Origin: Eledone cirrhosa | Lineage: Eukaryota | DNA: 64,000 nucleotides | Direction: 5' to 3' | Assembly (NCBI GenBank): GCA_964016885.1 | Contig: OZ024741.1 | Location: 332,320,001 to 332,384,000 of the forward strand | Shown: positions 10,276 through 60,204 of the stretch, in pieces | How the letters are laid out: each line of letters starts with the position of its first letter | Numbering within the stretch: the stretch's first letter is position 1 | Notes under the pieces: generated by a model | What the model was told of the DNA's origin: nothing | Seen by the model: only the letters and a program-made list of their open reading frames with translations | Database searches by the model: none | Position numbers and translations under genes: made by a program

Positions 10276-10468
10276 AACAAATTTAATATAGAAATGGCTT
10301 CTACAGGTCTAGAACTGTTTCATTCAAAGGAAGATTGATTTCCTTCGAATGAAACAGTTTCAGTCATGTAGAAGGCATTTCTACATTAAATTTGTTGTAT
10401 ACACTCTACTAATGTATTGAGTACCTTACTTACTCTGGTTACCCCCGATTGAACCCAGGATTCACACA
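10276..10468. mobile_element. Head-to-head Penelope-like element relic (hairpin 10276-10396 plus tail)
   Basis: ~55-bp imperfect inverted arms. The tail begins GTATACACTCTACTAATGTATTGAGTACC, a motif shared with the 37110, 40820 and 60020 elements. Confidence 0.65.
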
Positions 10469-10481
10469 TATATATTTCTTA

Positions 10482-10851
10482 GTATGAAGCAAGCATGCTT
10501 CGATGGATGTGCAATGTCAATGAACAACCAAGCATAGACTAGTCGAGAGAGAAACTGTGTATAAGAGAGACAAACTGTAGTGTGCAGGAGAGAAGACTAC
10601 GTTGGTATGGACATGTTATGCGCATGGAGGATGACTGCTGGGTAAAGAAGTGCAAAGAAATTACAGTGGAAGTAAGATGCAGTAGAGGAAGACCACGAAA
10701 ATCATGGGCGGAGGTGGTGAGAACTGACCTCAGATCGCTGAAGCTCACAGAGGAAATGACGAAGAACTGTGATGAATGGAGAGATACTCTGCTGAAAAGG
10801 ACCTGTCCCACCCTTGCAAGCAAGGAAAAGCGGACGTAAAATGATGATGAT
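10482..10851 (+). mobile_element. RTE LINE 3' fragment
   Basis: [31 protein letters not shown], ending GGACGTAAAA(TGA)n. Confidence 0.85.
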
Positions 10852-11064
10852 GGATATATATATCATCATCATCATTTTATGTCCGCTTTTCCTTGATAAA
10901 ATGAATATGTATGTATGTATGTGTGTATGTGTGTGTGTATATGTATGTATATATATCAATATGTGTATATATATGCATGTGTATATATATATATATGGGT
11001 GTATATATATGCATGTATATATATATATATATATATATATATATATATATATATATATATGGGT

Positions 11065-13489
11065 CATCATCATCACCGTTTTACGTCCGTTCTTCCACGC
11101 TAGCATGGGTTAGACGGGTTGTCCTGTTGTGGGCAGTGTCTGGTCGGCTGACCATGCCTTGCTCATACAGGAACTGATCTGGCTTGATTTCTACAGCTGG
11201 ATGCCCTTCCTAACACCAACCTCATTTACAGTGAGTGCTGGGTGCTTTTTCGTGGCGCCTACACGTCCACTTTACAGTGTGGGCTGGGTGCTTTTTTGCC
11301 GTGGCACCTCCACGACCACCTTGCGGTGGGGGGAGTGGGGGCATATTGTTTATATGCTTCAGCATGTACCCATGGGAGGTCGGGTACCCTGTATTACTGC
11401 GTGACGCCAGAAGTCACGGTCGTGTGTCATTGTCTTTGAGAGGTGTAGTTGGGTAAGGTCGGCTTTTATCACCTCATCCCAAGTCATCTTGGGTCTCCCC
11501 ACTCCGCGGTTTCCATCAACTTCTAGTGCTCTGCACCTTTTTATGCAGCTGTCATCCTTCATACGCATCACATGTCCATACCAGCGTAACCGCCTCTCCT
11601 GCACGCAGCATTTGATTCCTCTTATGCTCAGTCTCTCTCTCAATTCCTTTATGCTTTGTTGTTCACGTATATTACTGTTACACATCCATCGGAGCATGCA
11701 GGCTTCGTTTCTCTCTAATCTACGTAAGTCTTCCACCTTCAGCGCCCAGGTCTCACTACCATGCAACATCGCTGTTCGGATACACGCATCATACAGTCTG
11801 CCTTTCATTCTGAGGGAGAAGCCTTTTGCAGCTAGCAGTGGTAGTAGTTCCCTAAACTTCTTCCATCCCGTTCTTACCCTAGTTATTGTACTTTCTGAGC
11901 ACCCACCTCCGTTGCTAATTCGGTCACCTAGGTAGCAGAAGCTGTCTACTGTTTCTACAGGGCCCTCCCAGAGATTGGTGGTACTTGTTTCCTGTGGCTG
12001 TTTGCTTGCTGTTTCAGCACAGCTGCTGCATGTGAATCTTACATTCTTAATTAAGCTTCCTGAGATCCCGCTACATCTCTTGTGTACCCATTGTTTGCAT
12101 TTGGGGCAGAGAATGGAGTTCCTACCTACACCTTTCCTACATACTGAGCAAGGCCATTTCCCTGAGGGGATCTGGGTTCTGTTTTCTCGTCTACTTACAA
12201 GGACCTTAGTCTTTGTCATGTTGACTTTGAGGCCCTTTCTCTCTAGTCCCTGCTTCCAGGTTTGGAATTTATTCTCTAGTTCTACCATAGATTCAGCTAT
12301 GAGTGCGAGGTCATCAGCATACAGGAGTTCCCATGGGCATCCGGTCTTAAACTCCTCCGTTATTGCCTGCAGGACTATGATGAACAGGAGAGGGTTAAGA
12401 ACAGAGCCCTGGTGGACCCCAACCTGTACGCTAAATTCCTCGCTATACTCATTGCTAATCCTAACTTTGCTGACTGCTTCCCTATACATGGCTTGTACCA
12501 CTTTCACAAGCCATTCATCTACTCTTAGTTTTCTAAGAGCCCACCAGATTACTGCACGTGGAACTCTGTCAAAGGCTTTCTCAAGGTCGACAAATGCCAA
12601 GTAGAGTGGCTTACTTTTAGCTAGATACTTTTCCTGTAATTGCCTCACAAGGAAGAGGGCATCAGTGGTGCCTCTCCCTGGTACAAACCCAAATTGCATC
12701 TCGTCTATATTCACCCGGTCCTAATCAGCTGTGCTATAACTCTTTCTGTTACTTTCATGACCTGGTCCATCAACTTTATACCTCTATAGTTTCCTCTATC
12801 TAGTGCATCGCCTTTACCTTTGTAGCAGTTGACAATGATGCTACTGCACCATTCTTTTGGTATGGCCCCTTCTAGTATTACCTGGTTAACGATACGTGTG
12901 GTTATAGTGTGACCTACAGACCCAGATGCCTTCAGCATCTCGGCAGCTATACCCGATGGACCGGTTGCCTTCCCCATCTTCATATCTCTGATTGCCTTAC
13001 TTACTACGCTGCCGCTGACTTGTACTGCTGGTCCCTCTATAGGGTCTACCTGGGGTAGGGTCTCTTCTTCCCATGCATTCTCCTCATTTAGTAATCTATC
13101 ATAATGACTCTTCCATGCATCTTTCTTCTCAGCACTTGTGAGGGCAAGCTCAACTTTATCATTCCGGATACACTTCTCTCCAATGACATCACAACTATCT
13201 CTGACACACTGCCTCGTAATCTTGAATACCTCCTGTTTCTGGTCCTCACGTTGTAAAACATGCTTGAATTTTCTATCCTCTGCTTCCCTCCTAGCTAAGT
13301 ATACTTGTCGCCTAGCTTCCCTCTTGGTCTCTATGTAATGTACCCTGCTCCCCCCGTTCTTCCATTCTTTCCATGCCTGTCTCTTGGCCTTGACTGCTTC
13401 ATCTACCTTATTGTTCCACCACCAAGTCACTCTCCTCCTGCTTGAGGTCTTACTCCAGCCACAAACCTCATCCGTCGCCTCTAGTAAGT
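11065..13489 (-). mobile_element. 5'-truncated RTE LINE (RT, one frameshift near 12712)
   Basis: ORFs 12711-13430 and 11359-12714 contain NYRGIKL, QFGF, FVDLEKAFDRV, GVHQGSVL, YADD, YLG and RLRWYGHV. (TGA)n tail and candidate TSD TATGGGT at 11058-11064 / 13490-13496. Confidence 0.95.
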
Positions 13490-14060
13490 TATGGGTGTAG
13501 ATATATATATGTATATATATATATATATATATATGGGTGTATATATATGTATATATACATATATATATGGGTATATATGTATATATATATATATATATGT
13601 GTATGTGTGTGTATGTGTGAATATGTGTGTATGTGTGTATGTGTGTATATGTGTGTATGTATAAATGTGTGTATATGTGTGTATGTTAATGTGTTTATAT
13701 ACATGTTTAAATTTGCATATACATACACACACATGTACGTACACACATACATACACAAACATAAATCTCAGAGTGAATGAAGAAGAGAGACATCATCATC
13801 ATCATGATTGTATGTAAACATATTTCTCCATACCTGTATATAGCTATATAAGTATATTAAGTTAGAATTTACAGAAAGCTGCTTAAATGTTTTTATACAT
13901 TCTGCATTCTCTTTGCTTTCTAGCTTAGACATAAAGTGCAACTTTCTTTCATAATTCACTTTTAGATTTCTTGGAATAATTCAGCATCCTTAGTTTGCTT
14001 TTACTGTACTACTTATTCTGTGTTGACCTCAGTTTTCATACCAACCATACTTTTCAATAT

Positions 14061-14220
14061 AGGTGGCAAATAGCAAGGTTGTTAGAACATTGGAGAGAAT
14101 GCTTTGCTGTATTTGTTTTGGGTCCCTACTCTCTGAGTTCAAATCCTGCCAAGGTTATCTTTGCCTTTCATCCATTCAAGGTCAACAAAAGAAAGTATTG
14201 GTCTAGTTCTGAGATCGATC
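14061..14220 (+). mobile_element. tRNA-derived SINE (diverged)
   Basis: GGTGGCAAATAGCAAGG..GAGTTCAAATCCTGCCAAGG..GCCTTTCATCC. Confidence 0.65.
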
Positions 14221-58800: not shown

Positions 58801-58993
58801 TATATATATATATATATATATATATATATATATATATACATACACAGACACATATATATATATATATGTATACTCTATACATTTAAATATATTTAGTTAT
58901 ATTCTAGGAAATTATATTAGATCTTGGTATATACTAATCTTGGAATCCAAAAATATGTTCAACACTATTACTGTCATTATTGATGACACGGAG

Positions 58994-59205
58994 GGTGGTG
59001 GATTGGCAGTATTAGTAGTGTCAGACACCATGCTTTGCAGCAGAGAGTTATGGCCCTTTACGTTCTGAGTTTAAATCCCACTGAGGTTAGCTTTGCCTTT
59101 CATCCTTACGGGGCCAATAAAATAAAGCACCAGTAATGCACTGGGGTCAATTTAATCAACTTCTCTTTCTCCCCAAATTTCTGGCCTTGTGCCTATAGTA
59201 GAAAT
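58994..59205 (+). mobile_element. tRNA-derived SINE
   Basis: GGTGGTGGATTGGCAGTATTAGTAG..GAGTTTAAATCCC..GCCTTTCATCCTTACGGGG. Confidence 0.8.
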
Positions 59206-59276
59206 TGATGACAAGAGTCCACTAGTATATATATATATATATATATATATATATATATATATATATATATATATAT

Positions 59277-59598
59277 AATAAATGACTGATAAGTTTAAAA
59301 AATCTAATACAGTGTGGTAGAAATATATAAAGTGTAAAGGATGACAAATTAAAGAAAAAAAAAAACAAACAAACAATGGATGTGTTCCTCCTTAACTGCT
59401 CGACATAGAACACATCAATTGTTTTTGTTTAGAATTGTTTAGAATTGTTTCTGTTACACATTTGAAAAGAGCCCTGAAATATTATGTTGAAATATATTGG
59501 GTAAAACATGACATTATTTTATTATTTTTTCATCCTTTGCCTTTTGTATATTTCTACTTCATTATACTGGCTTTTAAAAACTTATCAGTCATTTATTA
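59277..59598. mobile_element. Old head-to-head relic with decayed hammerhead-like motif
   Basis: Arms TAATAAATGACTGATAAGTTT..AAAGGATGA / TCATCCTTT..AAACTTATCAGTCATTTATTA, with (TA)n flanks. Confidence 0.5.
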
Positions 59599-60019
59599 CA
59601 TACTTATATATATATATATATCATCATCATCATCATCATCACCGTTTTACGTCCGTTCTTCCATGCTAGCATGGGTTAGACGGGTTGTCCTGCTGACGCA
59701 GTGTCCGGTCGGCTGACCTTGTCTTGCTCATACGGGAACTGATTCTGGCTTGACTTCTACAGCTGGATGCCTTCCTAACACCAACCTCATTTACAGTGAG
59801 TGCTGGGTGCTTTTTTGCCATGGCACCTCCACGTCCACTTTGCAGTGGAATGATAGGGACCCCAGTCCTATCATTTCATTTCTACAGCTGAGTAAACTGG
59901 AGCAATGTGAAATAAAGTATCTTGCTCAAGGAAACAACACATCACCCGGTCCGAGAATTGAACTCGCATCCTTTTGATTGCAAGTCCAATGCTCTAACCA
60001 CTAAGCCATATATATATAT

Positions 60020-60204
60020 CAGATAGGGTGTGGTAAAAACTAGCTAGACCATAACCCACCAGAGTACTCGATACTTGGAATAGTAGGGTGGGTAATATGA
60101 AAAGATTCAGGATCCTGATGGCTGAGCCTTGGCCGTATTGACAGCTAGATCTAGCTGTCGAAACGGCCGGAGCTCAGCTGTCAGGGTCCTGAATCTTTTC
60201 ATAT
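60020..60204. mobile_element. Head-to-head PLE relic folded back within hammerhead stem II
   Basis: Hairpin 60095-60204 centred on AGATCT. The right arm has GAAACGGCCG. The tail at 60020-60094 is homologous to the 37110 and 40820 islands. Confidence 0.7.

Follow-up and report, generated by a model that had tools for sequence, protein, structure and literature searches.

Penelope-like elements (PLEs) carry reverse transcriptases (RTs) that form the sister group of the telomerase protein TERT (PMC8557442). The PLE tail and initiation at two sites are already known (PMC8557442, PMC11167929). The one-sided tail on the inverted pseudo-long terminal repeats (pLTRs) was named an open problem by Craig et al. 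2021 (PMC8557442), and its origin is left unanswered in the only in vitro study that we found (Frangieh et al. 2024, PMC11167929). According to the latter, the Poseidon protein PAc, a predicted dimer, cuts and extends both target strands in vitro and starts at two internal sites which bound the tail and match the genomic ends. By analyzing 64,000 nucleotides of the Eledone cirrhosa genome (contig OZ024741.1, positions 332,320,001 to 332,384,000; below, the window), together with further sequences of this 3.0 Gb genome and of marine metagenomes, we found that the leader of Hydra-clade PLEs contains two bulged stems, stem 1 and stem 2, and that insertions end about 6 nt 5' of either one. Judging from sequence, each stem is likely to be an RNA docking site that places one protomer of the RT-endonuclease.

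An earlier note, made from the letters of the window alone, had proposed that a conserved ACTC...GAGTRC tail stem marks the point where the tailless arm of such inverted repeats ends. All motif strings that it quoted were found in place and on the strand given, with three tandem copies each in the islands at 37110 and 40820 (tail families are named here by window position, letter or number). The enclosed loop, put at about 12 to about 70 nt, measured 12-73 nt in the window. The ACTC, said to lie within about 10 nt of the stop of the partner arm, was indeed near it; by eye, the tailless arm meets (TA)n 1-9 nt from the first stem base in 8 of 8 cases, and each interval includes -6.

As circularity was to be avoided, elements were then gathered by shape alone, namely as inverted repeats of which one end abuts (TA)n directly and the other is separated from (TA)n by 35-200 nt. 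A total of 1,264,000 bases (the window plus 120 stretches of 10 kb from the same genome) yielded 98 elements in 36 sequence clusters. Enrichment over shuffles was confirmed: the strict motif occurred at -2..+17 from the arm end in 39 of the 98 elements, against 0.3 (maximum 4) over 500 dinucleotide shuffles, and in 14 of the 36 clusters, again against 0.3. Using a looser 3' anchor, RCTC..GAGY was found near the arm end in 18 clusters (45 elements) and was absent there in the other 18. Three of these 18 carry a compensated variant such as GUUC/GAAC (chance rate of the rule 4.9%), and among the remainder there are a long interspersed nuclear element (LINE), a microsatellite and one or more further PLE clades. 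Compensated outer-helix variants of this and similar kinds were seen at L057:6715, L132:3202-4473, L180:2652-3180 and L065:1848. Genome-wide, a tight motif pattern had 1,336 matches, not independent since they are copies, against 9 for the reversed pattern.

In the motif, a RCUC/GAGY helix is followed inward by a 2-nt bulge on the 3' side, whose first base is U, and by an inner helix of 1-6 bp that closes a free loop; 8-73 nt are enclosed, and RC comes directly after the stem. The earlier note was thus right about a conserved stem and wrong about the constancy of its letters, as a GCTC/GAGC form occurs in 8 of 18 families of the E. cirrhosa genome (outer pair G-C in these 8, A-U in 10) and in 32 of 33 stems from other animals. 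It had noticed neither the bulge nor the covarying inner helix, and had passed over stem 2 and another stem-bearing family at 32214-32239. ACTC..GAGT pairs at most 130 nt from (TA)n had at least three inner pairs in the register of the 2-nt bulge in 28% of cases, against 5% elsewhere and 2-8% in other registers (172 and 630 cases). Inner positions 1-3 were paired in 17, 16 and 15 of the 18 families, compared to shuffle means of 11.6, 11.3 and 6.6. A marine-metagenome scan (best 80 of 373 stretches) provided 78 Hydra-type loci; 70 stems from 56 loci were collapsed to 33 independent ones. In all of these the first inner pair is Watson-Crick (24 C-G, 9 U-A), only with the 2-nt bulge, and the bulge itself is U-H (UU 19, UC 7, UA 7). 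Their inner positions were paired in 33, 23 and 21 stems against shuffle means of 26.4, 13.4 and 9.5, a result reached by 0 of 2000 shuffles; in these covariation counts the anchors were fixed by sequence alone and the shuffles ignore kinship.

The covariation expected of such an element was also apparent on an RT tree of 25 metagenome Hydra loci, where the first inner pair of stem 1 switches between C-G and U-A six times, with both sides changing every time. Inner positions 2 and 3 of stem 1 are less strict (paired in 22 and 16 of the 25 loci), and inner positions 1-3 of stem 2 are paired in 25, 13 and 21. The stem is a conserved, covarying structure of RNA type, not an invariant word. It is visible by eye in the published consensuses Hydra-2_Amil (coral), Hydra-2_Ajap (sea cucumber) and, with one mismatch, Hydra-1_Crog (copepod); one more coral consensus is doubtful, and two consensuses stop before the stem region. 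Identity with an Rfam family was rejected for want of a useful score: scans of two leaders gave a best E of 2.1 in one and nothing in the other, and a scan of the whole window returned only sub-threshold matches among the best 150 of 359. Hammerhead stem III, often ACUC/GAGU in Hydra hammerheads, was ruled out since it directly follows the GAA core, and stem 1 lies apart from it, about 45-65 nt after the core in the metagenome loci. A splice donor was ruled out as well, as the GAGC form has no GT.

That the stem marks the end of the tailless arm proved correct and to be half of the system, the tail end being marked by a second copy. Where copies are full-length, the tail continues into the 5' leader, in which stem 2 starts a few bases past the tail end and stops shortly before the ATG. 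Both stems were found in seven families of the E. cirrhosa genome. Full-length leaders carry them between hammerhead and ATG. Both were seen in full-length copies of families A, 15, 2 (the 51043 family of the window), 4, L053 and L140, with stem 2 following the tail end in the full-length copies L005, L009 and L010 of family A and L177 of family 2. Only stem 2 was seen in L133 and L160. A blind test was made of what follows the tail in the 37110/60090 family: the G/C-containing sequence met most often was 6 nt and then GC(TCC) (among the matches listed, 100 of 715), and a full stem 2 is present in L289. Out of 49 metagenome leaders, 26 had at least two stems (one of them a double count), 20 had one and three had none; the stems are mostly spaced 54-82 nt, downstream of the hammerhead, with stem 2 about 20-60 nt before the open reading frame (ORF) start. 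With another anchor, applied to 54 metagenome leaders with at least 150 nt upstream, the numbers were 20, 15 and 19, respectively. Hammerhead cores, with predicted cleavage, occur in the 51043 and 54393 families and at many metagenome loci, and as a variant by eye in the 37110 family; a pattern search gave none for the 10401, 23471 and 30746 families. In the minimum-energy fold of the L289 leader, base pairs can form between the 5' half of stem 1 and the 3' half of stem 2, which might act as a switch. By eye, a third, smaller RCUC/GAGU-like hairpin lies between hammerhead and stem 1 in the leaders of L183, L192, L196 and L199, which form one subclade.

In the unbiased DNA, the six families whose two stems are both known had 125 ends abutting (TA)n, of which 124 fell within -25..+5 of a stem (58 at stem 1, 66 at stem 2), windows which cover about a quarter of each query; L140 was left out of these counts because a (TC)n run in its query gave 246 spurious hits. 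A single offset of -6 fits 80 of the 88 cleanly aligned junctions (119 junctions in all) and 11 of the 12 family-ends, and the junctions overlap (TA)n by 2-6 nt, mostly 3 nt. UA peaks at -6/-5 in 15 of the 33 independent stems from other animals. Cross-locus mapping of ends in the metagenomes, which is small and noisy, placed about 10 informative ends at 0..-7 of a stem, the others being contig ends or diverged references. The overlap with (TA)n, and the position of stem 2 close to the ORF start, would also suit an account in which the ends merely fall in UA-rich patches by microhomology, with the stems conserved for another job such as translation, export or hammerhead folding. The leaders are AU-rich throughout, yet only one of the 125 ends lies elsewhere and one offset fits nearly all family-ends, so we give this account hardly any credence.

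Outward-facing ends could be paired for 70 insertions in 18 families. In 67 of these, one stem-1 end was combined with one tail end, one and one were symmetric, and one had an intermediate end; 67 of 69 contrasts with 34.5 expected for independent ends. As ends lie at stem 1 or stem 2, one each, tail length equals stem spacing. The arms were resolved in 52 of the 67 (15 remained without a resolved arm): 29 were near-perfect hairpins, in 10 the tailless copy was longer, in 9 the tailed copy was longer, and 4 were undecided. The probe mislabelled window family A, whose ORF shows the tailless copy to be longer. Since either arm can be longer, fold-back copying of the tailed arm does not account for the tailless one, and was rejected as a general rule. 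If the stems were RT start signals used in sequence, with one end primed at stem 2 and the other later at stem 1 and no coordinated dimer, the offset and covariation would be explained equally well, and a Hydra dimer is itself putative. Sequential priming would, however, require an extra rule for the one-of-each insertions and the near-perfect hairpins, and we regard it as unlikely.

The reading that we favor is that both stems are used at once. A pair of proteins would bind a read-through RNA at its stems 1 and 2 (or would bind these stems on two RNAs) and nick both strands of (TA)n. Each 3'-OH would then find 2-4 nt of U/A to pair with immediately 5' of its stem, so that priming takes place about 6 nt upstream. 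Both complementary DNAs (cDNAs) would be extended toward the 5' end of the RNA, and their 3' ends would be joined head to head. This would yield an inverted repeat in which precisely one end bears a tail, formed by the sequence that separates the two start sites, and the other end bears none. The data lend no support to a template that is usually cleaved by the hammerhead, since only 4 of 46 5' starts of the 37110 family are at the predicted site, most being at -53..-69.

The stems might instead act in DNA, with the GIY-YIG endonuclease recognizing the stem in single-stranded cDNA (or as duplex sequence) and cutting about 6 nt away during resolution. Resolution by the endonuclease is the origin of the tail according to Craig et al. 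(PMC8557442), the D. virilis tail is, as told in PMC11167929, needed for endonuclease recognition, some 5' junctions are at -6 too, and the strand asymmetry is weak. On the other hand, a plain duplex site is excluded by the variable loop and the covarying inner helix, the (TA)n overlap fits priming, and the genomic ends of PAc coincide with RT start sites in vitro (PMC11167929); the chance that the stems work by DNA cutting therefore appears small. A true template boundary, at which sense-strand synthesis on an antisense template (RNA or cDNA) halts about 6 nt before a protein-bound stem, is very improbable in our view. With an antisense template its geometry would suit a stop, self-priming on templates of that polarity has been proposed for PLE inverted repeats (PMC3846280), and the stem is partly strand-symmetric (17 of the 98 reverse complements match). 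Yet tailed ends cross stem 1 and halt only at stem 2, with one of each per insertion, tailless arms can far exceed tailed ones (e.g. window family A), and PAc uses sense RNA in vitro (PMC11167929).

Several observations weigh against docking of a protein pair on two RNA stems, or limit it. A search for stem 2 was negative in the 10401 family (9 matches, 4 places) and in the 30746 family (0 matches), and in 13 of the 18 paired families the second end is a tail end with a putative stem 2. As many as 18 of the 67 asymmetric pairs are the reference copies used (leaving at least 49 of 51), 85 ends were left unpaired, and 3 of 31 5' junctions of family 15 lie at -6 of stem 2, unexplained by the model. 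The stems are weak on their own, the minimum-energy fold forming stem 1 in 3 of 8 window tails and the inner part only in one more. The sense-strand preference is also weak (G-U 12 vs A-C 7 at inner pairs 2-4), so that the acting form may be RNA or cDNA. In PAc, the RNA letters of Fig. S1 show by eye no RCUC/GAGY stem, and starts occur inside an AC-rich stem loop without target homology (PMC11167929). A Neptune/Nematis-type family in the present genome also has a tail without this stem. Because of PAc and this family, the motif is not PLE-wide, and the two-stem rule is so far confined to the Hydra clade.

The Neptune/Nematis-type family, assigned to its clade by eye (L161:4900-7650, also L308, L312, L313 and L317; CxxC linker and C-terminal GIY-YIG), ends at two points which are spaced by about 60 nt and are each followed by the 7-mer AATATCG, and possibly follows the same two-signal rule with another signal. 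A shared RCUC/GAGY stem was ruled out, the sole such copy (L141) being a nested insertion; in octopus Naiad consensuses no clear stem was seen by eye. More tentatively, at a little under an even chance, PLE insertion could be programmed twin priming, in which a dimer reads two copies of an RNA ruler and two cDNAs start 6 nt upstream on opposite target strands, giving the inverted, one-tailed pLTR. This may be general among PLEs with clade-specific signals, and may be a retroelement forerunner of the RNA-anchored internal template of telomerase.

In L260, L267 and L271 (family 15), L002, L141, L188 and L199, some 5' junctions or nested insertions were located at the UA patch before stem 2; homing into own leaders or template switching are candidate causes. 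The islands at 37110-37351 and 40820-41065 are near-identical duplicates inside kilobases of (TA)n/CATA satellite, and consist of three tandem 64-66-nt units starting at the predicted hammerhead cleavage site (-25 from stem 1). The units may record repeated copying of cleaved RNA.

The PLE origin of the tails, assumed in the earlier note, was borne out, the clade being Hydra. The family A element of the window encodes a single ORF, with the RT before a C-terminal GIY-YIG domain, for which 97 homologues were found. DKT and a CxCX5C linker are present, and full-length family A copies start with an RWR motif matching the RWK-type motif. By eye, there is no CxxC inside the GIY-YIG core (two C, 8 apart), a CxxC before E is present, the last residues are missing from this copy, and the protein resembles those of Hydra-1_Obim/Ajap. 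With the clade set by these motifs and not by a tree, the ORF matches the Hydra clade as defined in PMC8557442; Naiad or Nematis identity was ruled out by domain order and motifs, and a Pfam search of the ORF gave no match. This copy extends to a tailless end near 30276. Family A is young, since 108 scored matches in the genome are 99-100% identical, and many of its near-identical ORFs are intact. At least 10 more Hydra-like ORF fragments with 36-61% identity were found in the first 664 kb examined. Insertion of Hydra-type elements into (TA)n was observed. The 23471, 51043 and 37110/60090 tail families are directly linked to a Hydra ORF and the 10401 and 54393 families by proximity only; for the 30746 family no link was seen. 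Head-to-tail arrays of family A have a period of about 6.65 kb, and arrays of the 37110 family one of about 3.54 kb (arrays at C6:49529803-49557560 and C1:183737485-183758648).

Repeats in the window otherwise comprise LINE fragments and dense (TA)n-type repeats. LINE copies with an apurinic endonuclease (APE) and RT, and a PHD finger after the RT, are located at 11359-13685 and 44727-47807 (minus strand). The features are collected below.

Features of the 64,000-nucleotide window, in order of position
Feature	Positions	Strand	Remarks
Cadherin exon	2139-4568	+	809-codon open frame, at least 5 cadherin repeats, protocadherin-like
Stem 1 (ACUC-UAC...GUA-UU-GAGU), tail start	10403-10422	+	tail 10397-10467; short hairpin insertion 10276-10467
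Stem 1 of family A, 5-bp inner helix, 73 nt enclosed	23390-23470	-	tailed inverted copy; tail 23337-23476
Hydra-clade PLE ORF by motif match, family A, 5'-truncated	24361-26436	+	RT then C-terminal GIY-YIG
Tailless end of family A insertion	30269-30279	+	meets (TA)n at -7..-4 of stem 1
Stem 1	30682-30745	-	tail 30607-30751 of hairpin insertion 30607-31376
Further stem (GCUC...UU-GAGC-AC)	32214-32239	-	tandem partner within 32721-32855; flanked by two-ended family-15 insertion 31982-32925
Three tandem stem 1 copies	37158-37310	-	37158-37181, 37224-37247, 37287-37310; island 37110-37351
Duplicate island, three tandem stem 1 copies	40868-41021	-	40868-40891, 40934-40957, 40998-41021
Stem 1 (ACUC-CAGU...ACUG-UA-GAGU)	51018-51042	-	tail 50961-51049 of hairpin insertion 50961-51332
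Hammerhead core (CUGAUGA...GAAA)	51102-51149	-	same pLTR as 51018-51042 stem; predicted cleavage about 50 nt upstream of stem 1
Hammerhead core	54294-54325	+	upstream of 54394 stem
Stem 1, degenerate inner helix	54394-54423	+	tail 54388-54490; partner arm 54184-54221
Stem 1, one mismatch (ACCC/GAGU)	60066-60089	-	37110-island family; hairpin 60099-60200

A literature search, covering sources other than subscription papers and Repbase notes, found no description of the stem, its duplication, the offset or the one-of-each rule. A duplicated cis-element which spans phyla, combined with a constant offset and the one-of-each rule, makes the tail problem precisely testable. The two stems define a minimal RNA for biochemistry and structure work on Hydra elements, give exact element boundaries for annotation, and bear on the choice of an internal template by a telomerase-related RT.

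Among described systems, the Hydra clade of endonuclease-bearing PLEs with C-terminal GIY-YIG (Craig et al. 2021, PMC8557442) shares with the present elements the RT, RWK-like and DKT motifs and the CxCX5C linker, as well as (TA)n insertion, an inverted 5' copy, a tail at one end and, in some families, a predicted hammerhead in the pLTR. The accessible text of that paper describes no conserved tail structure, second stem or fixed offset, and gives tails of 30-40 nt, vs about 55-220 nt here, and elements under 3 kb, vs a family A repeat period of 6.65 kb. PAc (Poseidon, Anolis; Frangieh et al. 2024, PMC11167929) likewise has two internal starts bounding the tail, an AT-rich target, cutting and extension of both target strands and a predicted dimer; it belongs to another clade, and in the accessible text neither a repeated signal is identified nor a one-of-each rule or twin-priming model stated. 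Stringent LINEs (ZfL2-1/2, UnaL2; PMC4176376, PMC1636434) also have a conserved stem with variable loop, protein-bound near the priming site. Theirs is a single stem-loop at the RNA 3' end of an APE-type LINE, with a family-specific loop, whereas the leader of these GIY-YIG PLEs has two internal copies, with stem and bulge kept across phyla and a free loop. Doubled and internal as it is here, the 3' stem-loop of stringent LINEs is a closer working analogue than the template boundary element of telomerase, to which the earlier note had turned.

The telomerase element lies on the 5' side of the template. It blocks copying beyond the template (PMC11206666), and the resemblance consists in an RNA helix at a fixed distance from the copied stretch, a related RT (PMC8557442) and short primer-template pairing with a simple repeat (PMC11206666). 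The polarity of the analogy is wrong: the telomerase helix, beyond the last copied base and itself uncopied, stops copying, whereas the Hydra stems sit ahead of the start: on the sense RNA they are found 3' of both the junction and the base copied first, and copying passes right through stem 1 in every tailed end. An RT-binding element that sets internal initiation, as the same note had it, would be compatible with the tight coupling to the arm end; the boundary role is unsupported. In L1 twin priming, both target strands reportedly prime on the RNA, giving an inversion. There the second site is opportunistic, whereas in the Hydra elements both sites appear programmed, with the 3' region duplicated.

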